A stretch of 32,000 nucleotides of DNA from Flavobacteriaceae bacterium (GCA_965224465.1 OZ245049.1:1140001-1172000); one strand, 5' to 3'; positions 10,489 through 21,145 are shown, counted from the first letter of the stretch. Notes: a model not told the origin generated them from the letters alone. Numbers and translations: made by a program.

Positions 10489-10698
10489 TCATTGATTCAT
10501 TACAAATATAAGTTTTTGATAATAAACATTTTCCGAGTCCTCTTTATTTAATTTTTCTTTCACCAATTTTATCATCTATTCAGTTCGCATAAAAAAAGCA
10601 CCTCGTTTAGGTAAATATTGCCTAATAAGTCCAGATAAATTTTCATTAAAACCTCTTTCCCTTGAATGGTAAGGGTAGGCAACATAACATGCTGTTTC
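10489..10698 (-). pseudogene. 3' remnant of an IS30-family transposase gene
   Basis: Hand translation gives (TACYV)AYPYHSRERGFNENLSGLIRQYLPKRGAFFMRTE*MIKLVKEKLNKEDSENVYYQKLIFVMNQ*. PYxSxERGxNENxxGLIRQYxPK is the hallmark IS30 catalytic-E region. An in-frame TAG at 10576-10578 and the missing N-terminal two thirds mark it as a scar. Confidence 0.6.
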
Positions 10699-10699
10699 C

Positions 10700-11398
10700 C
10701 TACCAACCCCCTATGCGTATTCTTTCTTTTTGCTGCTCAATGGTATCTTCTGGAGAGGGAATAGCACTAGGATACAAAGGTTTTGGAAACCCGTTTTTCT
10801 TTCTGCGCTCATAATCTTGCTGACGATAATCGTCAAAAGCAGTCCCAGGTGGTAAAGGCCTATTTTTATCCATATACCATACATAAAAACTCCACACTTT
10901 ATAGGGTTCACTGCCATAAAAAGTATACAACAAATCTAATTTTCTTGGCTTAAAAGTATTTACAAACTTTAAATACTCAAAATCTGAATAACCTTCAATA
11001 TTACCTGTTACAGCGATTACAACTTTTAAATCTTTAAAATCTCCTTTCAGTGGAGGAAGAAAAAAAACATCTGGATAGGTAACCGTTCCTTCCAAACGAT
11101 TCAATTCAAAAATTTTATATTCTTTTTTTGCAAACAAACCGTAATACACCCCAAATAAGCCAAGTAAAATCAATAGAATGGTTACGACTACTTGTTGAAT
11201 CCCTTCTATTGGTATCATAAGCCATATAGCAATCACAATGGCTCCTATACCGAATTGCATATAAGAATTTAACCTATGATCATGCGTTTCGAAATAGATT
11301 TTATCATCAGCACGTTTTAACATTGCTTTATCTGATTTACTAACCAAACTCTTATCTATTTCTATCGGATCTTCTATAATTTGATGTGGTTGATACAT
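10700..11398 (-). CDS. Two-TM membrane protein, putative immunity paralog (copy 8; cassette type a-x)
   Basis: 232 aa, the last unit of the array. Its 3' flank runs directly into the IS30 remnant. Confidence 0.8.
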   Translation of the reverse strand: MYQPHQIIEDPIEIDKSLVSKSDKAMLKRADDKIYFETHDHRLNSYMQFGIGAIVIAIWLMIPIEGIQQVVVTILLILLGLFGVYYGLFAKKEYKIFELNRLEGTVTYPDVFFLPPLKGDFKDLKVVIAVTGNIEGYSDFEYLKFVNTFKPRKLDLLYTFYGSEPYKVWSFYVWYMDKNRPLPPGTAFDDYRQQDYERRKKNGFPKPLYPSAIPSPEDTIEQQKERIRIGGW

Positions 11399-11534
11399 TT
11401 TATTTCGTTCTATAAGATTCTAACATTTTAATACTATTTTCTGTAACAATTTTTGGCTTCTAAACTACTTGTCTCACACACACTTTAAAAACTGCAACTC
11501 TCCTATAAAAAAAACAACATAACATGCTGTTTCC

Positions 11535-12233
11535 CTACCAACCCCCTATGCGTATTCTTTCTTTTTGCTGCTCAATGGTATCTTCTGGAGAGGGAATAGC
11601 ACTAGGATACAAAGGTTTTGGAAACCCGTTTTTCTTTCTGCGCTCATAATCTTGCTGACGATAATCGTCAAAAGCAGTCCCAGGTGGTAAAGGCCTATTT
11701 TTATCCATATACCATACATAAAAACTCCACACTTTATAGGGTTCACTGCCATAAAAAGTATACAACAAATCTAATTTTCTTGGCTTAAAAGTATTTACAA
11801 ACTTTAAATACTCAAAATCTGAATAACCTTCAATATTACCTGTTACAGCGATTACAACTTTTAAATCTTTAAAATCTCCTTTCAGTGGAGGAAGAAAAAA
11901 AACATCTGGATAGGTAACCGTTCCTTCCAAACGATTCAATTCAAAAATTTTATAGTTCTTTTTTGCAGATAAACCGTAATAAATCCAAAATAATCCACCA
12001 ATTACTAATACTGTTGGTAATATTCTTTGAGATGGTATTTCTGAATAATAAAAAAGCCCTATTCCAAACACAATGGCTCCTATACCGAATTGCATATAAG
12101 AATTTAACCTATGATCATGCGTTTCGAAATAGATTTTATCATCAGCACGTTTTAACATTTCTTTATCTGATTTACTAACCAAACTCTTATCTATTTCTAT
12201 CGGATCTTCTATAATTTGATGTGGTTGATACAT
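11535..12233 (-). CDS. Two-TM membrane protein, putative immunity paralog (copy 7; cassette type a-y)
   Basis: 232 aa. The C-terminal 138 aa are identical to copy 8, but the TM hairpin cassette is the alternative y version. Confidence 0.8.
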   Translation of the reverse strand: MYQPHQIIEDPIEIDKSLVSKSDKEMLKRADDKIYFETHDHRLNSYMQFGIGAIVFGIGLFYYSEIPSQRILPTVLVIGGLFWIYYGLSAKKNYKIFELNRLEGTVTYPDVFFLPPLKGDFKDLKVVIAVTGNIEGYSDFEYLKFVNTFKPRKLDLLYTFYGSEPYKVWSFYVWYMDKNRPLPPGTAFDDYRQQDYERRKKNGFPKPLYPSAIPSPEDTIEQQKERIRIGGW

Positions 12234-12369
12234 TTTATTTCGTTCTATAAGATTCTAACATTTTAATACTATTTTCTGTAACAATTTTTGGCTTCTGCAT
12301 TGCTTCTAACACACACACTTTAAAAACTGCAACTCTCCTATTAAAAAAACAACATAACATGCTGTTTCC

Positions 12370-13068
12370 CTACCAACCCCCTATGCGTATTCTTTCTTTT
12401 TGCTGTTCAAGGGTATCTTCTGGAGTAGGAATAGCACTAGGATACAAAGGTTTTGGAAACCCGTTTTTCTTTCTGCGCTCATAATCTTGCTGACGATAAT
12501 CGTCAAAAGCAGTCCCCGGAGGTAAGGGCCTATTTTTATCCATATACCACACATAAAAACTCCACTCTTTATATGGATCACTGCCATAAAAAGTAAACAA
12601 CAAATCTAATTTTCTTGGCTTAAAAGTATTTACAAACTTTAAATACTCAAAATCTGAATAACCTTCAATACTACCTGTTACTGCGATTACAACTTTTAAA
12701 TCTTTAAAATCTCCTTTCAATGGAGGAAGAAAAAAAACATCTGGATAGGTAACCGTTCCTTCCAAACGATTCAATTCGAAAATTTTATATTCTTTTTTTG
12801 CAAACAAACCGTAATACACCCCAAATAAGCCAAGTAAAATCAATAGAATGGTTACGACTACTTGTTGAATCCCTTCTATTGGTATCATAAGCCATATAGC
12901 AATCACAATGGCTCCTATACCCCAGTAAATATTCGATTTCAAGAAAAAAGCAAAAGATCTAAAATAAATTTCATCATCTGCTCTATTCAAAGATTTTTTA
13001 TCTGATTTACGAACCAAACTCTTATCTATTTCTATCGGATCTTCTATAATTTGATGTGGTTGATACAT
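12370..13068 (-). CDS. Two-TM membrane protein, putative immunity paralog (copy 6; cassette type b-x)
   Basis: 232 aa. The 5' half matches copy 4, while the extreme 3' end (ERIRIGGW) matches copies 7 and 8. The copy is therefore itself a mosaic. Confidence 0.8.
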   Translation of the reverse strand: MYQPHQIIEDPIEIDKSLVRKSDKKSLNRADDEIYFRSFAFFLKSNIYWGIGAIVIAIWLMIPIEGIQQVVVTILLILLGLFGVYYGLFAKKEYKIFELNRLEGTVTYPDVFFLPPLKGDFKDLKVVIAVTGSIEGYSDFEYLKFVNTFKPRKLDLLFTFYGSDPYKEWSFYVWYMDKNRPLPPGTAFDDYRQQDYERRKKNGFPKPLYPSAIPTPEDTLEQQKERIRIGGW

Positions 13069-13205
13069 TTTATTTCGTTCTATAAGATTCTAACATTTTA
13101 ATACTATTTTCTGTAACAATTTTTGGCTTCTAAACTACTTGTCTCACACACACTTTAAAAGCTGCAACTCTCCTATTAAAAAAAACAACATAACATGCTG
13201 TTTCC

Positions 13206-13904
13206 CTACCAACCCCCAATACGTTTTCTTTCTTTTTGCTGTTCAATGGTATCTTCTGGAGTGGGAATAGCACTAGGATACAAAGGTTTTGGAAACCCGT
13301 TTTTCTTTCTGCGATCATAATCTTGCTGACGATAATCGTCAAAAGCAGTCCCCGGAGGTAAGGGCCTATTTTTATCCATATACCATACATAAAAACTCCA
13401 CACTTTATAGGGTTCACTGCCATAAAAAGTATACAACAAACCTAATTTTCTTGGCTTAAAAGTATTTACAAACTTTAAATACTCAAAATCTGAATAACCT
13501 TCAATATTACCTGTTACTGCGATTACAACTTTTAAATCTTTAAAATCTCCTTTCAGTGGAGGAAGAAAAAAAACATCTGGATAGGTAACCGTTCCTTCCA
13601 AACGATTCAATTCGAAAATTTTATATTCTTTTTTTGCAAACAAACCGTAATAAATCCAAAATAATCCACCAATTACTAATACTGTTGGTAATATTCTTTG
13701 AGATGGTATTTCTGAATAATAAAAAAGCCCTATCCCAAACACAATGGCTCCTATACCGAATTGCATATAAGAATTTAACCTATGATCATGCGTTTCGAAA
13801 TAGATTTTATCATCAGCACGTTTTAACATTGCTTTATCTGATTTACGAACCAAACTCTTATCTATTTCTATCGGATCTTCTATAATTTGATGTGGTTGAT
13901 ACAT
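13206..13904 (-). CDS. Two-TM membrane protein, putative immunity paralog (copy 5; cassette type a-y)
   Basis: 232 aa, with the same cassette pair as copies 3 and 7. Shares KLGLLY and DYDRRKK with copy 3. Confidence 0.8.
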   Translation of the reverse strand: MYQPHQIIEDPIEIDKSLVRKSDKAMLKRADDKIYFETHDHRLNSYMQFGIGAIVFGIGLFYYSEIPSQRILPTVLVIGGLFWIYYGLFAKKEYKIFELNRLEGTVTYPDVFFLPPLKGDFKDLKVVIAVTGNIEGYSDFEYLKFVNTFKPRKLGLLYTFYGSEPYKVWSFYVWYMDKNRPLPPGTAFDDYRQQDYDRRKKNGFPKPLYPSAIPTPEDTIEQQKERKRIGGW

Positions 13905-14041
13905 TTTATTTCGTCCTATAAGATGCTAACATTTTAATACTATTTTCTGTAACAATTTTTGGCTTCTAAACTACTTGTATCACACACACTTTAAAAACTG
14001 CAACTCTCCTATTAATAAAAACAACATAACATGCTGTTTCC

Positions 14042-14740
14042 CTACCAACCTCCAATACGTTTTCTTTCTTTTTGCTGCTCAATGGTATCTTCTGGAGTAG
14101 GAATAGCACTAGGATACAAAGGTTTTGGAAACCCGTTTTTCTTTCTGCGCTCATAATCTTGCTGACGATAATCGTCAAAAGCAGTCCCAGGTGGTAAAGG
14201 CCTATTTTTATCCATATACCATACATAAAAACTCCACACTTTATAGGGTTCACTGCCATAAAAAGTATACAACAAATCTAATTTTCTTGGCTTAAAAGTA
14301 TTTACAAACTTTAAATACTCAAAATCTGAATAACCTTCAATATTACCTGTTACTGCGATTACAACTTTTAAATCTTTAAAATCTCCTTTCAATGGAGGAA
14401 GAAAAAAAACATCTGGATAGGTAACCGTTCCTTCCAAACGATTCAATTCGAAAATTTTATATTCTTTTTTTGCAAACAAACCGTAATACACCCCAAATAA
14501 GCCAAGTAAAATCAATAGAATGGTTACGACTACTTGTTGAATCCCTTCTATTGGTATCATAAGCCATATAGCAATCACAATGGCTCCTATACCCCAGTAA
14601 ATATTCGATTTCAAGAAAAAAGCAAAAGATCTAAAATAAATTTCATCATCTGCTCTATTCAAAGATTTTTTATCTGATTTACGAACCAAACTCTTATCTA
14701 TTTCTATCGGATCTTCTATAATTTGATGTGGTTGATACAT
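14042..14740 (-). CDS. Two-TM membrane protein, putative immunity paralog (copy 4; cassette type b-x)
   Basis: 232 aa, with cassettes KSLNRADDEIYFRSFAFFLKSNIYW and IAIWLMIPIEGIQQVVVTILLILLGLFGVYYGL. The N-terminal 100 aa are identical to copy 6. Confidence 0.8.
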   Translation of the reverse strand: MYQPHQIIEDPIEIDKSLVRKSDKKSLNRADDEIYFRSFAFFLKSNIYWGIGAIVIAIWLMIPIEGIQQVVVTILLILLGLFGVYYGLFAKKEYKIFELNRLEGTVTYPDVFFLPPLKGDFKDLKVVIAVTGNIEGYSDFEYLKFVNTFKPRKLDLLYTFYGSEPYKVWSFYVWYMDKNRPLPPGTAFDDYRQQDYERRKKNGFPKPLYPSAIPTPEDTIEQQKERKRIGGW

Positions 14741-14877
14741 TTTATTTCGTTCTATAAGATTCTAACATTTTAATACTATTTTCTGTAACAATTTTTGGCT
14801 TCTAAACTACTTGTCTCACACACACTTTAAAAGCTGCAACTCTCCTATTAAAAAAAACAACATAACATGCTGTTTCC

Positions 14878-15576
14878 CTACCAACCCCCAATACGTTTTC
14901 TTTCTTTTTGCTGTTCAATGGTATCTTCTGGAGTGGGAATAGCACTAGGATACAAAGGTTTTGGAAACCCGTTTTTCTTTCTGCGATCATAATCTTGCTG
15001 ACGATAATCGTCAAAAGCAGTCCCCGGAGGTAAGGGCCTATTTTTATCCATATACCATACATAAAAACTCCACACTTTATAGGGTTCACTGCCATAAAAA
15101 GTATACAACAAACCTAATTTTATTGGCTTAAAAGTATTTACAAACTTTAAATACTCAAAATCTGAATAACCTTCAATATTACCTGTTACTGCGATTACAA
15201 CTTTTAAATCTTTAAAATCTCCTTTCAGTGGAGGAAGAAAAAAAACATCTGGATAGGTAACCGTTCCTTCCAAACGATTCAATTCAAAAATTTTATATTC
15301 CTTTTTTGCAGATAAACCGTAATAAATCCAAAATAATCCACCAATTACTAATACTGTTGGTAATATTCTTTGAGATGGTATTTCTGAATAATAAAAAAGC
15401 CCTATCCCAAACACAATGGCTCCTATACCGAATTGCATATAAGAATTTAACCTATGATCATGCGTTTCGAAATAGATTTTATCATCAGCACGTTTTAACA
15501 TTGCTTTATCTGATTTACTAACCAAACTCTTATCTATTTCTATCGGATCTTCTATAATTTGATGTGGTTGATACAT
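14878..15576 (-). CDS. Two-TM membrane protein, putative immunity paralog (copy 3; cassette type a-y)
   Basis: 232 aa, with cassettes AMLKRADDKIYFETHDHRLNSYMQF and FGIGLFYYSEIPSQRILPTVLVIGGLFWIYYGL. Shares the KLGLLY and DYDRRKK substitutions with copy 5. Confidence 0.8.
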   Translation of the reverse strand: MYQPHQIIEDPIEIDKSLVSKSDKAMLKRADDKIYFETHDHRLNSYMQFGIGAIVFGIGLFYYSEIPSQRILPTVLVIGGLFWIYYGLSAKKEYKIFELNRLEGTVTYPDVFFLPPLKGDFKDLKVVIAVTGNIEGYSDFEYLKFVNTFKPIKLGLLYTFYGSEPYKVWSFYVWYMDKNRPLPPGTAFDDYRQQDYDRRKKNGFPKPLYPSAIPTPEDTIEQQKERKRIGGW

Positions 15577-15713
15577 TTTATTTCGTTCTATAAGATTCTA
15601 ACATTTTAATACTATTTTCTGTAACAATTTTTGGTTTCTAAACTACTTGTATCACACACACTTTAAAAACTGCAACTCTCCTATTAATAAAAACAACATA
15701 ACATGCTGTTTCC

Positions 15714-16412
15714 CTACCAACCTCCAATACGTTTTCTTTCTTTTTGCTGCTCAATGGTATCTTCTGGAGTAGGAATAGCACTAGGATACAAAGGTTTTGG
15801 AAACCCGTTTTTCTTTCTGCGCTCATAATCTTGCTGACGATAATCGTCAAAAGCAGTCCCAGGTGGTAAAGGCCTATTTTTATCCATATACCATACATAA
15901 AAACTCCACACTTTATAGGGTTCACTGCCATAAAAAGTATACAACAAATCTAATTTTCTTGGCTTAAAAGTATTTACAAACTTTAAATACTCAAAATCTG
16001 AATAACCTTCAATATTACCTGTTACAGCGATTACAACTTTTAAATCTTTAAAATCTCCTTTCAATGGAGGAAGAAAAAAAACATCTGGATAGGTAACCGT
16101 TCCTTCCAAACGATTCAATTCAAAAATTTTATATTCTTTTTTTGCAAACAAACCGTAATACACCCCAAATAAGCCAAGTAAAATCAATAGAATGGTTACG
16201 ACTGCTTGTTGAATCTCTTCTATTGATACCATAAGCCATATAGCAAACACAATGGCTCCTATGCCGAATTTCATATAAGTATTCAGCCTATGACCATGCG
16301 TTTCAAAATAGATTTTATCATCAGCACGTTTTAACATTCCTTTATCTGATTTACTAACCAAACTCTTATCTATTTCTATCGGATCTTCTATAATTTGATG
16401 TGGTTGATACAT
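15714..16412 (-). CDS. Two-TM membrane protein, putative immunity paralog (copy 2; cassette type a-x, slightly diverged)
   Basis: 232 aa. Cassette 1 is GMLKRADDKIYFETHGHRLNTYMKF and cassette 2 is FAIWLMVSIEEIQQAVVTILLILLGLFGVYYGL. The C-terminal domain differs from copy 8 at 2 positions. Confidence 0.8.
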   Translation of the reverse strand: MYQPHQIIEDPIEIDKSLVSKSDKGMLKRADDKIYFETHGHRLNTYMKFGIGAIVFAIWLMVSIEEIQQAVVTILLILLGLFGVYYGLFAKKEYKIFELNRLEGTVTYPDVFFLPPLKGDFKDLKVVIAVTGNIEGYSDFEYLKFVNTFKPRKLDLLYTFYGSEPYKVWSFYVWYMDKNRPLPPGTAFDDYRQQDYERRKKNGFPKPLYPSAIPTPEDTIEQQKERKRIGGW

Positions 16413-16548
16413 TTTATTTCGTTCTATAAGATGCTAACATTTTAATACTATTTTCTGTAACAATTTTTGGCTTCTGCATTGCTTCTAACACACACACTTT
16501 AAAAACTGCAACTCTCCTATAAAAAAAACAACATAACATGCTGTTTCC

Positions 16549-17247
16549 CTACCAACCCCCTATGCGTTTTCTTTCTTTTTGCTGTTCAATGGTATCTTCT
16601 GGAGTAGGAATAGCACTAGGATACAAAGGTTTTGGAAACCCGTTTTTCTTTCTGCGCTCATAATCTTGCTGACGATAATCGTCAAAAGCAGTCCCAGGTG
16701 GTAAGGGCCTATTTTTATCCATATACCATACATAAAAACTCCACTCTTTATAGGGCTCACTGCCATAAAAAGTATACAACAAACCTAATTTTCTTGGCTT
16801 AAAAGTATTTACAAATTTTAAATACTCCCTATCTGAATAACCTTCAATACTACCTGTAACAGCGATTACAACTTTTAAATCTTTAAAATCTCCTTTCAAT
16901 GGAGGAAGAAAAAAAACATCTGGATAGGTAACCGTTCCTTCCAAACGATTCAATTCAAAAATCTTATAGTTCTTTTTTGCAAATAAACCGTAATAAATCC
17001 AAAACAATCCACCAATTACTAATACTGTTGGTAATATTCTTTGAGATGGTATTTCTGAATAATAAAAAAGCCCTATCCCAAACACAATGGCTCCTATGCC
17101 CCAATAAATATTCGATTTCAAGAAAAAAGCAAAAGATCTAAAATAAATTTCATCATCTGCTCTATTCAAAGATTCTTTATCTGATTTACGAACCAAACTC
17201 TTATCTATTTCTATCGGATCTTCTATAATTTGATGTGGTTGATACAT
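16549..17247 (-). CDS. Two-TM membrane protein, putative cognate immunity protein (array copy 1 of 8; cassette type b-y)
   Basis: 232 aa. The ATG lies 1 nt after the stop of the 1116-aa ORF (TAAaATG). No signal peptide. Two adjacent TM helices at about residues 50-88 and a conserved C-terminal domain of about 140 aa. Cassette 1 is SLNRADDEIYFRSFAFFLKSNIYW and cassette 2 is FGIGLFYYSEIPSQRILPTVLVIGGLFWIYYGL. Confidence 0.8.
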   Translation of the reverse strand: MYQPHQIIEDPIEIDKSLVRKSDKESLNRADDEIYFRSFAFFLKSNIYWGIGAIVFGIGLFYYSEIPSQRILPTVLVIGGLFWIYYGLFAKKNYKIFELNRLEGTVTYPDVFFLPPLKGDFKDLKVVIAVTGSIEGYSDREYLKFVNTFKPRKLGLLYTFYGSEPYKEWSFYVWYMDKNRPLPPGTAFDDYRQQDYERRKKNGFPKPLYPSAIPTPEDTIEQQKERKRIGGW

Positions 17248-17248
17248 T

Positions 17249-20200
17249 TTATTTCGTTCTATAAGATGCTAACATTTTAATACTGTTTTCTGTAACAATT
17301 TTTGGCTTCTGCATTGCTTCTTCTTCTGACATATTTTGTAATTTAACCTTACGTACATTTATAGGCTGTTGATATCGATGTGCTGTAAATATACTCGTCA
17401 TATATCTTGTATTATTGTTCACTTTATTATGTAATTGTGCGTTGGTAAATACGTAGCGTTTGTTATGATTAAAATCAGAAGGAGTATACTCATCATCTTG
17501 TACACGAACTCTAAAGGTAAACAATACTTCGCCATCAGGATAATCCATATACCTCCAATAAAACAGATCAGGTAAACCGAAACTAACAATACAATTAGGA
17601 GTCATTTTATCCGCATCAAAAAGGAAGCTCTTTTCAGGAAAACTAGATATAAATGTAGTGATTTCGAAACGTCTTCCTTTTTTTAATGGAGCTTTAATAC
17701 CAAAGGGATAAAACCATGCTTTAATATCTAAATCATAAAATTCACTAATATTTTGAACAGAATATATAGAGGCTCTAAAACGATTGGTACTTACATTATG
17801 TATGTCAAATCCTTTTATAGGCGCAACATAACCAGCATTAGGTTCTGGTTCAAGAACAACTAAACTAGGAATGGCTATGTCTAAGAAAGCTGTATATGCT
17901 TTTTCAAAATTACTAAAACTCGTATATTCTTTAGCTTGTGCGCTTACAAACCATGGATTGATAACTGTTGCGGTACTGTGAGACACCAAGCGATTGATAT
18001 AATCATGTGGTAATTCCGTATCTTTAGGAGGCAATGCATAATCACTTAATGGAAAATTCTTAAAATAGCCTTCGAGTTGGGTGTCAACAAAATATTTTTG
18101 AGCCAAATAGTAACAGCCTAACAAAGCCCCTCCAAGAAGTGCTGCTGGCCAAAAACCAAGAGCAAATACTGCTACGCCTCCACCAATTAAAGCAGTAACA
18201 TCTGCAAATAAGAAAACAGCGCCTATTCCCGCAGCCATTCCGAACAAGGCTGCAGCATCGTTATCGCGCACAGAAAAACTCCGATAGCTATCTCTAGAGG
18301 CAGTAAAAACGGTAATGGCAGAACTTACTATTTTAAGTTTTGCTATATTTTTAGAAAAATCATCCATGCTACTACGAAAAATTTCACCTACAAATCCTTT
18401 TTTTGCTAGATGATTCTCATACAAATTCATTTTTTCAATTAAAGACATACTTGCCGCTCCCAATTGAACACTAGCAAACCCGAATTTTTCAAACCCTCTA
18501 TAAGAAGGGTCTTTTAAAAAACTATTAACAGCTTTAGACAACACAAACACCTCAATTAAAACAACAAGTCCTCCGAAAGCGTTTGATTTTAGAACTTTTT
18601 CTGCTTCTCCTTTAAAACGTTTTGGAAGGTTTCCTTTTAAATTTACTTCAAGTTTTTTGTTTTTGATAAGTGCTTCAGCACTTTGTTTAGTCATTTTTGT
18701 ATACTCAAGGTGCCAGTATTTTTTATATTTATGTAATGTCGCTTTTTCCCCATTAATTTCAAAACGCAAATTGCGGTTATTGATTTTAGTTTCAAATTCT
18801 TCTAGTGCTTTAAATTTAAAGGTAGCTACACGTGTGTTTTTATCTCTAAAATAAGATATTTTACTTTTTACAGGTATGGGAAGTTTTTTTTGCTTTAGCT
18901 TAATAAAAGCACCTATATAGCTATCATGATTTGCATAAGCCTTTATGATTCTTTCAATAACTCCTACTGTTTTATTTATTATACTCAAAACAAACATATC
19001 CTGTATGTCGATCTTATAATCTAATATTTTGGTGGATTTATTAAAAACACTTGGATTTTCGTTGTATAAAGTTTCGTTTATATGGATGTACCAGGGATCC
19101 TTTTTAGGCTCATAGACATTTGTTAAATCTAAATGACGGTCATACATATTAGGATAACTGCCTAAAGCAATGAAATGTACTGCTATAACACCTTTGGCAT
19201 CTTCAATCCTATCGGGAATACTATTCATATAATCATCCGTTGCATCTTGATAATAGTCGGACTTCAAAAAAGTTCCCAAATCATCTCTATACGTATTAAT
19301 TACCTTGCGTTGCACCTTGCGTTCTTCTACGCCTAATATTTTTTCTAGTTTTATTTTTTCGACACCTTTTTGTTCGGTAAATGGTCGAAATACGCCCCCT
19401 ACTGTAAAATCTAAAACACGGTTGGCAACGGTGTTTTTTATTACATCTGAATTGTATTTTTCACTATTATCATGGTTGTTGTACACAAAATCATACGTAA
19501 GTTGCGCCAATCTATGTAAATATTGAATTTGTCTGGATTTTTCAGTATCGGATTTTGGTAATTGCTCCCCTTTTTGAAGCATAGAAAGTATCTCCACGGT
19601 AGACTTCCCTGTTTGTAAACTTGCCATCATCGCTTTAAGTCTCAAAATTTCACTGTCAATACCTACACATATTTCATTGGCACAGCCAATAGGGTCATCC
19701 AGTATAATAAACATATCTTCTAACAAGATATTCCCACCTAGCTTATCTTGTCTCTTTTCGTCGTCAGCAATTCTCGTAAGTATCTCACGGTATTTATACG
19801 CCATAGGATTCCTATCACTTACAACTATAGGTGTATTATTATAATGCGAAACTGACATATTATTTGTTTCTCCATCTTTAGGGATTCCTTTACAGAGTAC
19901 TTTTACCTTACAACGTTGACCCCTTTTTTCTTTGCTATCTAAAAGCTCTTTTACATAATTTGCCTTCCATTGTACAGGAGAAAAAGCAAAGCAATAGGTT
20001 TGGTTATTCCGATCAAGTATTTTATACATAATACCAAGATCGAAAGTGGTCCGAACATCTAAATAGCTACCGTCTTTTTTGTTTTTACTCCAAAGTATTT
20101 CATGTAACAATCCAAAATCATCGACCCTAAATTCCTTAAAATCATCATGAGGTGTTTGATCATTTATCATATAAACATAGCCTGCTCTTAAAGGAGTTTT

Positions 20201-20599
20201 CGATACCGAAAAATTTTCATTAGCTGGAATTTCTGAATCCATAATCACAGCATTCAGTTGTACAAAAGGTATAAAATCCTGATTTTTTAGTTCAGACTCA
20301 GAAGGTTTTTCGTTGATAACCTTCCCAACAGTTGCTTTTTTTTCTTCATTAAAAAAAATAGCTTTAAAATATGCGGCACTATCAGGTGATGAATAACTAG
20401 TTGTTGGCACAGAATAATCAGAACAAACATCAAAAAGTCCATACCGTAAAAAATGAAGTTTTATCCCTCTTTTTTCTATATCCAATGTAGGCATTTCGTT
20501 GCATACAACATTTTTATATGCAGCTGTAAATGAGAGCTGTGTAATTATTTGTTTGAATTCTTTTTCTTGATTTTTTTCAAGTGTTATATTTTCTTTCAT
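17249..20599 (-). CDS. Large protein without a signal peptide, with a C-proximal glycine-zipper TM cluster. Putative membrane-disrupting polymorphic toxin or T6SS-type effector (VasX-N-like motifs).
   Basis: 1116 aa with no N-terminal signal peptide. Residues ~105-320 carry IPFVQLN, PLRAGYVYMI, FAFSPVQW and FIILDDPIGCANEI, which I recall as the motif order of VasX-type effector N-terminal regions. Residues ~673-835 hold several hydrophobic helices, including AALFGMAAGIGAVFLFADVTALIGGGVAVFALGFWPAALLGGALLGCYYLA. The gene is translationally coupled to the downstream two-TM gene. Function is inferred, not demonstrated. Confidence 0.6.
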   Translation of the reverse strand: MKENITLEKNQEKEFKQIITQLSFTAAYKNVVCNEMPTLDIEKRGIKLHFLRYGLFDVCSDYSVPTTSYSSPDSAAYFKAIFFNEEKKATVGKVINEKPSESELKNQDFIPFVQLNAVIMDSEIPANENFSVSKTPLRAGYVYMINDQTPHDDFKEFRVDDFGLLHEILWSKNKKDGSYLDVRTTFDLGIMYKILDRNNQTYCFAFSPVQWKANYVKELLDSKEKRGQRCKVKVLCKGIPKDGETNNMSVSHYNNTPIVVSDRNPMAYKYREILTRIADDEKRQDKLGGNILLEDMFIILDDPIGCANEICVGIDSEILRLKAMMASLQTGKSTVEILSMLQKGEQLPKSDTEKSRQIQYLHRLAQLTYDFVYNNHDNSEKYNSDVIKNTVANRVLDFTVGGVFRPFTEQKGVEKIKLEKILGVEERKVQRKVINTYRDDLGTFLKSDYYQDATDDYMNSIPDRIEDAKGVIAVHFIALGSYPNMYDRHLDLTNVYEPKKDPWYIHINETLYNENPSVFNKSTKILDYKIDIQDMFVLSIINKTVGVIERIIKAYANHDSYIGAFIKLKQKKLPIPVKSKISYFRDKNTRVATFKFKALEEFETKINNRNLRFEINGEKATLHKYKKYWHLEYTKMTKQSAEALIKNKKLEVNLKGNLPKRFKGEAEKVLKSNAFGGLVVLIEVFVLSKAVNSFLKDPSYRGFEKFGFASVQLGAASMSLIEKMNLYENHLAKKGFVGEIFRSSMDDFSKNIAKLKIVSSAITVFTASRDSYRSFSVRDNDAAALFGMAAGIGAVFLFADVTALIGGGVAVFALGFWPAALLGGALLGCYYLAQKYFVDTQLEGYFKNFPLSDYALPPKDTELPHDYINRLVSHSTATVINPWFVSAQAKEYTSFSNFEKAYTAFLDIAIPSLVVLEPEPNAGYVAPIKGFDIHNVSTNRFRASIYSVQNISEFYDLDIKAWFYPFGIKAPLKKGRRFEITTFISSFPEKSFLFDADKMTPNCIVSFGLPDLFYWRYMDYPDGEVLFTFRVRVQDDEYTPSDFNHNKRYVFTNAQLHNKVNNNTRYMTSIFTAHRYQQPINVRKVKLQNMSEEEAMQKPKIVTENSIKMLASYRTK

Positions 20600-20930
20600 G
20601 GCGTCTTTTTCAAAAATATCAGAGGTAGATACCCCACATTTTTAACGTAAAAAACAATGGTACATCCTATTTTTATCTTCCTAGATATAAGTCTATTTCC
20701 AAGAGAAAAGAACAATTACTATTCCCTTTAGACTTCAAAGATACGTAAGAAAAGTTATATGCCGCTTACAACAAATCGTTTTTTTAATAAATTGTGAAAT
20801 AACATTTATTATAGCATCATACCTCCAATCAATAACCGTTAAATTGACTGGGTATTATCTTAATAATTTTATGACGCCTTTATGCCAATTAAAATCCAAA
20901 ATGACCTATATAAATAGGTTGTTTTACGTG

Positions 20931-21050
20931 CTAGCATAGTTAAAAAACAAAACGACAGCTAACTATCCTTAGATTTTCAGCCTAGCTAGAATAAAAAACA
21001 ATTCTATTTCTAAACCGTCACTTGGAAATGTTTTTGACATTAGCAATACT
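20931..21050. repeat. Right copy (R2) of the imperfect direct repeat of about 120 bp bracketing the island
   Basis: Same orientation and shared blocks as 9773..9893. Lies between the lon terminator and the upstream region of the large ORF. Confidence 0.6.
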
Positions 21051-21064
21051 TTTAAAATCAGCTC

Positions 21065-21113
21065 AAAAAAAAAACAAAAAAAGAGCGAAAAAACACATCA
21101 TGTCTTTCCGCTC
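21065..21113 (-). terminator. Probable intrinsic terminator of lon
   Basis: On the minus strand, a bulged stem gagcg-g-aaa ... ttt-cgctc is followed by a long T-run (tttttttgtttttttttt), about 35 nt after the lon stop. Confidence 0.5.
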
Positions 21114-21145
21114 CTTTATGGCTTTTTGCTTAAAGCTATTTCCTA

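Follow-up and report, generated by a model that had tools for sequence, protein, structure and literature searches.

A VasX-family toxin gene followed by a mosaic array of eight presumed membrane immunity genes in a Flavobacteriaceae bacterium

We describe here a locus of a Flavobacteriaceae bacterium (GCA_965224465.1) at which a toxin gene of the VasX family is followed by a tandem array of eight copies of a presumed membrane immunity gene. The locus lies in a window of 32,000 nucleotides (nt; OZ245049.1:1140001-1172000), that is, the whole stretch of DNA that was analysed, and coordinates are counted from its first letter. The spacers between the copies carry remnants of the 3' end of the toxin gene. 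From these remnants and from the mosaic make-up of the copies, the array probably goes back to one founding junction, followed by amplification and reshuffling.

The toxin gene and the array

The toxin gene and all eight small genes are on the minus strand. The toxin gene (17249..20599) encodes 1116 amino acids (aa), and 1 nt separates its stop codon from the ATG of the first of eight 232-aa open reading frames (ORFs). The period from ATG to ATG is 835/836 nt, with seven spacers of 136/137 nt each. Tandem Repeats Finder, with a maximum period of 500 nt, missed the array, which was characterised by script. Numbered from the toxin outward, and delimited as ORFs and by comparison of units and cassettes, the copies are copy 1, the presumed cognate (16549..17247), copy 2 (15714..16412), copy 3 (14878..15576), copy 4 (14042..14740), copy 5 (13206..13904), copy 6 (12370..13068), copy 7 (11535..12233) and the terminal copy 8 (10700..11398).

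What kind of toxin is this? A Pfam search finds VasX_N (PF20249) at aa 134-229, with 34.1 bits against a curated cut-off of 27. A sub-threshold match to an effector family of type VI secretion systems (T6SS), BTH_I2691_fam (NF041559; 34 bits, cut-off 150), covers aa 658-843, in the hydrophobic C-terminal half of the protein, where there is a G/A-rich hydrophobic stretch at about aa 780-835. A PDB profile search returned just the Ptx2 toxin, at E=0.065. Homologues 38-64% identical over the full length occur in Aquimarina, Tenacibaculum, Cellulophaga and uncultured Flavobacteriaceae; they carry the NCBI name 'toxin VasX', and they keep the tail motif EEAxQKPKIxxENxIxxLxSY. By domain and by name, then, the protein is presumed to be a membrane-disrupting T6SS effector of the VasX family.

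The 232-aa proteins belong to a large, unnamed family without a Pfam entry (726 hits), found in the same marine Flavobacteriaceae. An AlphaFold model (pLDDT 85.8) has a transmembrane (TM) helical hairpin, residues 41-63 and 67-89, and then a beta-rich domain. For comparison, 36 related VasX loci were retrieved (L-numbers below denote retrieved loci or contigs), and in nearly all of them an immunity homologue lies directly downstream of the toxin gene, often in several copies. The downstream position, the conservation in relatives and a TM hairpin placed where the toxin is expected to act are what one would look for in a cognate immunity protein.

A PAAR-domain gene of 230 aa ends just upstream of the toxin gene in about 30 of the 36 related loci (L002-L004, L007-L030, L039); there is none at that place in the window, in L001, in L005 or in L006. 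In the window, a non-coding gap of 546 nt (20600-21145) runs from the toxin start to a Lon protease gene, so that here the toxin is no longer accompanied by the spike gene that normally goes with it. The neighbours of the array are the Lon gene and a thioredoxin gene. The ORFs of at least 120 aa in the window include no recombinase domain, the feature by which an integron-like or rAID-type immunity island would be known.

Toxin tails, filler and hairpin in the spacers

The original prediction was that the 3' tail of the toxin gene reappears upstream of each downstream copy, and base-by-base comparison bears this out for seven of seven spacers. The source segment, 17248..17321, takes in the last nt of codon 1093, codons 1094-1116 and the stop codon, plus the lone A that stands ahead of the ATG of copy 1. 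When a 64-nt pattern spanning toxin tail and ATG was run against the window at no more than 1 mismatch, it matched exactly 8 times, against 0 times in 100 shuffles. None of the seven remnants has an indel, each has 1-3 mismatches to the toxin, and the TAAaATG junction is intact in 7/7, again as had been proposed. The shared tail had been put at about 68 nt; the tail is real, the lengths being 74 and 63 nt when counted to the ATG.

The two lengths define two classes of spacer. In class I, the spacers at 16413-16548 and 12234-12369, 74 nt match toxin 17248-17321 (remnants 16413..16486, with 1 mismatch, and 12234..12307, with 2), and the translation reads LEAMQKPKIVTENSIKML(A/E)SYRTK*, where the asterisk denotes a stop codon. 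The five class II spacers keep a 63-nt match, at 15577..15639 (3 mismatches, after the patch GATACAAGTAGTTT), 14741..14803 (after the patch GAGACAAGTAGTTT), 13905..13967, 13069..13131 and 11399..11461. Here the 63 nt are preceded by GTGTGA(G/T)ACAAGTAGTTT, there is an in-frame TAG where the toxin has CAG, and the translation is (R/I)QVV*KPKIVTENSIKML(E/A)SYRTK*. The spacer coordinates and translations given earlier, and the plus-strand string aaactacttgt(c/a)tcacac, which is the plus-strand reading of GTGTGA(G/T)ACAAGTAGTTT, prove correct. The class II patches lie at 11462-11475, 13132-13145, 13968-13981, 14804-14817 and 15640-15653, and their class I counterparts at 12308-12320 and 16487-16499. 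The classes differ by about 5 substitutions clustered in 12 nt (GAAGCAATGCAG versus CAAGTAGTTTAG), beside 63 almost invariant nt. The pattern resembles a short tract of conversion or template switching more than a set of point mutations, and no source for the patch was found.

At position -38 all seven spacers have T where the toxin has C. Since they share this T and also the filler described below, the seven spacers descend from one founding junction, and the comparison shows, at the level of sequence, a single origin for them at a toxin/immunity junction. Why is the remnant there at all? With just 1 nt between toxin stop and immunity ATG, an event that copies or moves a complete immunity gene with its start context takes the toxin 3' end along.

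Where does the repeated unit end? After copy 8 the repeat homology stops 20 nt past the stop codon (10680..10699), between GGAAACAGCATGTTATGTTG and CCTACC. The earlier view of the unit, running from inside the last ~22 toxin codons to about 20 nt past the small gene's stop, is thus right about the 20-nt end, while its boundaries sum to 74 + 699 + 20 = 793 nt against a period of 835-836 nt, leaving about 42 nt per spacer unexplained. This filler, a T-run and then ATAGGAGAGTTGCAGYTTTTAAAGTGTGTGTG, is near-identical in all seven spacers and is found nowhere else in the window (7 hits); an example, a T-run and then ATAGGAGAGTTGCAGTTTTTAAAGTGTGTGTGTT, is at 16487..16528. Neither the toxin tail nor the terminal flank accounts for the filler, and simple duplication of native sequence does not explain it.

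The 20 nt that follow each stop, and that the spacers have in common with the terminal flank (for example 16529..16548), form with the T-run a 13-bp hairpin in which the T-run is the 3' arm; at 16513-16545 it has -9.4 kcal/mol and z = -4.5. The terminal flank, 10671-10712, has no T-run, and CCTACCC there pairs instead with GGGGGTTGGTAGG at the ORF end, which places the repeat boundary inside a hairpin. Only this short post-stop hairpin stands out, whole-spacer RNA folds being no more stable than shuffles (z = -0.4 and -1.8), and Rfam has no RNA family in the window.

The spacers also contain small ORFs. On the minus strand of the class I spacers (12235-12360 and 16414-16539), an ATG in the hairpin opens an ORF of 41 codons that takes in the remnant and has its stop 1 nt ahead of the following immunity ATG; the class II spacers are left with an ORF of just 8 codons (MLxSYRTK*). 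Alternative-frame ORFs of 41-97 aa spanning the spacers were considered and are taken as by-products of the repeat.

Mosaic copies and the origin of the array

Nucleotide diversity (pi) among the copies is distributed very unevenly. Across the remnant and the ORF's first 57 nt it is 0-0.026, over ORF nt 62-270 it is 0.17-0.41, and in the rest of the gene it is mostly 0-0.06, reaching 0.09 in the ORF's final 30 nt; in the spacers it is 0.03-0.12. The variable part consists of two cassettes, A (aa 19-55, the juxtamembrane segment; alleles A1 and A2) and B (aa 56-97, the TM hairpin; alleles Bx and By), and between them a conserved stretch of about 27 nt encodes GIGAIV, with no invariant run of at least 18 nt. 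On either side lie near-identical blocks, one of about 120 nt (the remnant and the first 57 nt of the ORF) and one of about 540 nt (the C-terminal domain and the spacer start). All four combinations of cassettes occur: A2By in copy 1, where it is next to the toxin and unique within the array, A1Bx in copies 2 (in the variant form A1'+Bx') and 8, A1By in copies 3, 5 and 7, and A2Bx in copies 4 and 6.

The cassettes and the framework around them differ greatly in divergence. Synonymous divergence (dS, Nei-Gojobori) is about 0.6-1.0 between cassette alleles, about 0.1 in the C-terminal domain and about 0 in the remnant and the first 18 codons; among the eight copies the C-terminal domains are 96-100% identical and the first 18 codons 100% identical. 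By is 74% identical to a protein of another organism (P0028) and only 48% to Bx, and motifs like A1 and like A2 both recur in Tenacibaculum maritimum. The high dS between alleles, the closeness of By to a foreign protein and the recurrence of the A motifs together show that the cassette alleles are much older than the spacer framework.

The signs of exchange are strong. In the four-gamete test 2515 of 4465 informative site pairs fail, and p<0.0005 is obtained in a PHI-like permutation test. Independent assortment is seen for patch class, T-run variant, the GCA/GAA (A/E) polymorphism of the remnant, cassette A and cassette B. By this evidence pervasive recombination among the copies is shown. 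The two spacer classes had been offered as a relative chronology; with independent assortment, the four-gamete failures and the permutation result, no order of events can be read from them. One step does stand out as recent: units 3 and 5 differ at 9 positions and units 4 and 6 at 15, so that copies 3 and 4 form a two-unit super-repeat with copies 5 and 6, and a two-unit duplication is the most recent step.

What events might account for such an array? In the reading that we favour, to which we give a probability of roughly 0.7, a VasX-family toxin gene is followed by an eight-copy array of a presumed membrane immunity gene that arose from one founding junction and was then amplified and reshuffled. 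In the founding event, toxin codon 1093/1094 would have become linked to sequence lying immediately downstream of an immunity gene, which produced an 836-nt unit of hairpin with T-run, ~42-nt filler, toxin tail, TAAaATG and ORF. Unequal crossing-over and gene conversion between units would have amplified it and would go on reshuffling it; growth and reshuffling are plain in the sequence, and the mechanism is the one we consider likely. The exchanges would run through the two long near-identical blocks, mixing old cassette alleles that were either retained or imported through the same blocks, the duplication giving units 3-4 and units 5-6 being the latest step. The benefit would be protection from the resident toxin, for which copy 1 is the probable source, and probably also from the variant VasX toxins of competitors, with specificity placed in the TM hairpin and the juxtamembrane segment. 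The two-cassette mosaic makes the TM hairpin a likely specificity determinant.

Related loci show that such growth occurs. In L004, a TGGTAA microhomology links ...GGATGGTAA of the first immunity gene to position -198 of the toxin with no extra sequence, and from this clean junction it is clear that tandem duplication with its left breakpoint inside the toxin gene demonstrably grew that locus. A single-copy arrangement, which had been suggested as something to look for, is present in L001, L002, L003 and L005, the closest sequenced relatives. Copy number varies in T. maritimum, where 2, 4 or at least 5 copies follow the same VasX gene in different strains (L039 CP020822, L044 CP137269, L045 CACSGR01). 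There the spacer is likewise built of three parts: 12 nt that recur in the terminal flank, a filler of about 57 nt and some 17 nt from the end of the toxin gene. One T. maritimum strain has a (240 aa, 233 aa)x2 super-repeat, and one spacer has shrunk from 88 to 43 nt. The earlier proposal that the array arose by tandem duplication of the native toxin/immunity junction is therefore upheld in part, by the one origin of the spacers, the L004 junction and the single-copy relatives; the unexplained filler and the mosaic copies with old cassettes do not fit it. The filler, like the three-part spacer of T. maritimum, fits both donor DNA joined into the toxin tail and a duplication followed by loss at the distal end of the array.

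Several points weigh against the founding-junction reading. On the comparisons above, the cassette alleles are older than the framework, so that duplication alone cannot explain the diversity of the copies. The clustering of the substitutions that separate the spacer classes is odd for point mutation, and a search for the source of the filler in the 3' 600 nt of the toxin gene, both flanks and the rest of the window stayed at shuffle level throughout. It is conserved synteny from which we infer that the 232-aa proteins are immunity proteins for this toxin, and searches of Pfam, NCBIfam, PDB sequences and PDB folds gave no match, be it to a characterised immunity protein or to anything else. 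The 32-kb window holds no PAAR or other T6SS gene. Finally, the searches turned up no further genome of the species to which the window belongs, and the change in copy number is seen instead in the T. maritimum relatives.

Displacement offers another route to the same arrangement. A toxin-immunity module of another strain would have recombined in, anchored in the conserved toxin body and ending illegitimately in the last codons of the resident toxin, and the resident immunity gene would have been pushed downstream behind a stump of toxin tail. The filler would be the 3' flank of the donor; later, homologous exchange by way of the conserved blocks would have brought in cassettes of other strains, and unequal crossing-over would have multiplied the unit. 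Such a history would account for a filler without a source in the window, for the three-part spacer of T. maritimum and for cassette alleles older than their framework, By being closer to P0028 than to Bx. It has also been published for Vibrio cholerae arrays, including a shifted effector 3' end (PMC5361080).

There is, moreover, an apparent example of a tail that travelled. Outside the array, the homologue closest to the immunity gene (73% identity) occurs in three independent metagenome contigs (L041-43), where it lies behind an unrelated gene fragment with a HEFGH metallopeptidase motif. The immunity gene is directly preceded by a chimeric 95-aa ORF (L041:2-1702 region), whose first two-thirds are lipoprotein-like and whose last ~30 residues are a VasX tail (...EEALQKPKIISEKNITKLQSYRIK*; ...KPIDMPEEEALQKPKIISEKNITKLQSYRIK*). 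The arrangement has the appearance of an orphan immunity gene taken up into the locus of a different toxin, and it is in accord with displacement that orphans with VasX tails occur in such foreign contexts. It had been argued that independently acquired orphan immunity genes would not carry the toxin fossil; the L041-43 orphans do carry it. With toxin stop and immunity ATG only 1 nt apart, the tail travels with the gene by any mechanism, and the remnant does not exclude acquisition. Displacement as the main source of the array is nevertheless unlikely. All eight genes belong to one family, with C-terminal domains and first 18 codons as similar as described above; the near-identity of the seven spacers calls for at most one displacement event; L004 has its clean in-situ junction; and no donor was found, two metagenome scans, one with the filler and one with a degenerate tail pattern, giving 0 hits.

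Might selection instead maintain the remnant because the expression of each copy needs it, whether as internal promoter, as 5' leader or as a mini-ORF for translational coupling (MLxSYRTK*, whose end lies 1 nt ahead of the ATG)? The remnant and the 5' end of the ORF are the least variable block of the unit, and in L018 and L015 the remnant is 92-96% identical to the toxin tail against 66-84% for the adjacent ORFs. An A-rich leader with A at -1 to -3 would suit the start contexts of Bacteroidota. In L004, however, conservation is no higher in the remnant (82%) than in the ORFs (85%). In the window itself the remnants differ from the toxin by 1.4-4.8%, about the ~3.5-4.2% by which the C-terminal domain of copy 1 differs from those of the other copies, so that no special constraint is needed for the remnant to survive. 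Nor does any fixed element seem to be required, as remnants range across loci from ~7 to 207 nt (L004 207 nt, L018 194 nt, L021 125 nt, L015 75 nt, T. maritimum ~17 nt, and the six-copy array of L006 ~7 nt).

A promoter within the remnant has a precedent in V. cholerae, where the tsiV2 promoter is within the last 253 bp of vasX (PMC3857813). A scan for the Bacteroidetes -33/-7 promoter, however, gave no match of at least 8/10 in either the remnant or the final 300 nt of the toxin gene, and a scan of the spacers for sigma-70 promoters and terminators gave nothing above shuffled expectation. The sole candidate is the class II patch TAGTTTAG, which with TTTT-N19 scores 8/10 in the Bacteroidetes scan; such matches occur at 6.9 per kb, which is background, and we do not regard a promoter in the remnant or spacer as supported. 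There is little evidence that the remnant has a function, and selection for one is a very improbable explanation of its presence. An assembly artefact was also considered, and we reject it since the units differ from one another at 9-157 positions in a structured pattern.

Comparison with other immunity arrays

The closest analogue of the array that we know is in type VII secretion systems, the esaG and tipC strings of Staphylococcus and Streptococcus (Garrett et al. 2022, PMC9484751). There a polymorphic toxin gene has downstream of it a string of immunity paralogues that are not identical to one another, and the intergenic regions between them are uniform in length and closely similar in sequence. 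Variable regions that assort independently lie between homology blocks, of which one covers the gene end and the intergenic region, and recombination between paralogues explains how copies are gained and lost (PMC9484751). The window has the same features, namely eight non-identical paralogues, uniform and similar spacers, and conserved blocks flanking incongruent variable regions. It differs from esaG and tipC in its T6SS-type toxin, its Bacteroidota host and its protein families, in that the conserved upstream block is the 3' coding end of the toxin gene, and in having just two variable cassettes of two alleles each, in all four combinations.

For the T6SS immunity arrays of V. cholerae, sequential displacement was proposed, and the authors argue against duplication (Kirchberger et al. 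2017, PMC5361080). Those arrays, the Rhs and contact-dependent inhibition (CDI) strings of orphan toxin tips with immunity genes, and the window have in common that immunity arrays lie downstream of one effector with effector 3' ends left behind, and that homologous recombination spreads or reshapes the arrays. Toxin 3' remnants in immunity arrays are thus already known, and the remnant in the window is an expected by-product of array growth. The V. cholerae, Rhs and CDI arrays are heterogeneous, with several immunity families and donors, whereas the window has one family and near-identical spacers, and amplification of a single unit dominates. Instead of the heterogeneous genes and remnants of a displacement array, one finds one family, one tail with T at -38 and an identical filler; only the internal cassettes look foreign or old.

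The VasX/TsiV2 pair of V. cholerae (Miyata et al. 2013, PMC3857813) resembles the window in its arrangement, a gene for a VasX_N toxin being followed directly by a membrane immunity gene. TsiV2 is single-copy, against eight copies here. The V. cholerae vasX locus has VgrG, Hcp and the VasW adaptor, and the window has none of them; the 3' end of vasX carries the promoter for tsiV2 (PMC3857813), and none was detected in the window remnant.

What might the array be for? One could imagine that the toxin-tail/5'-ORF block and the C-domain/spacer block are built-in recombination anchors, the former perhaps also a portable expression leader, and that the array is a combinatorial shuffler of two specificity cassettes. 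We regard this as a doubtful proposal; if it were true, the organism would hold pre-emptive immunity against VasX variants that it does not itself make. Whatever its use, the locus gives a sequence-level view of how immunity arrays grow and diversify beside a membrane-targeting T6SS-type toxin in marine Flavobacteriaceae, a group that includes the fish pathogen T. maritimum, in which copy number differs by strain. A full-text literature search found no paper mentioning both VasX and Tenacibaculum, and none on these VasX loci. The locus also carries a caution. Where toxin and immunity genes abut, a tail remnant marks every relocated or copied immunity gene, and the remnant alone cannot separate in-situ duplication from acquisition.

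Some observations lie outside the array itself. Elsewhere on the same contig, of 5,241,564 bp, the source genome has a second VasX paralogue of 823 aa, 56% identical, which ends within the hydrophobic region and is therefore perhaps truncated, and with it an immunity paralogue of 240 aa that is 51% identical (P0010 and P0080 are the toxin and immunity paralogue proteins). In the T. maritimum locus L044, Lamassu-like genes (LmuB_C, AAA_23) directly follow the array. In transcriptome data from a eukaryote, one Trinity component, TRINITY_DN1221_c0_g1, includes both a toxin homologue (P0003) as isoform i3 and an immunity homologue (P0063) as isoform i6. The component is probably bacterial contamination, and it hints that the toxin and immunity genes of a relative are expressed and linked on RNA.

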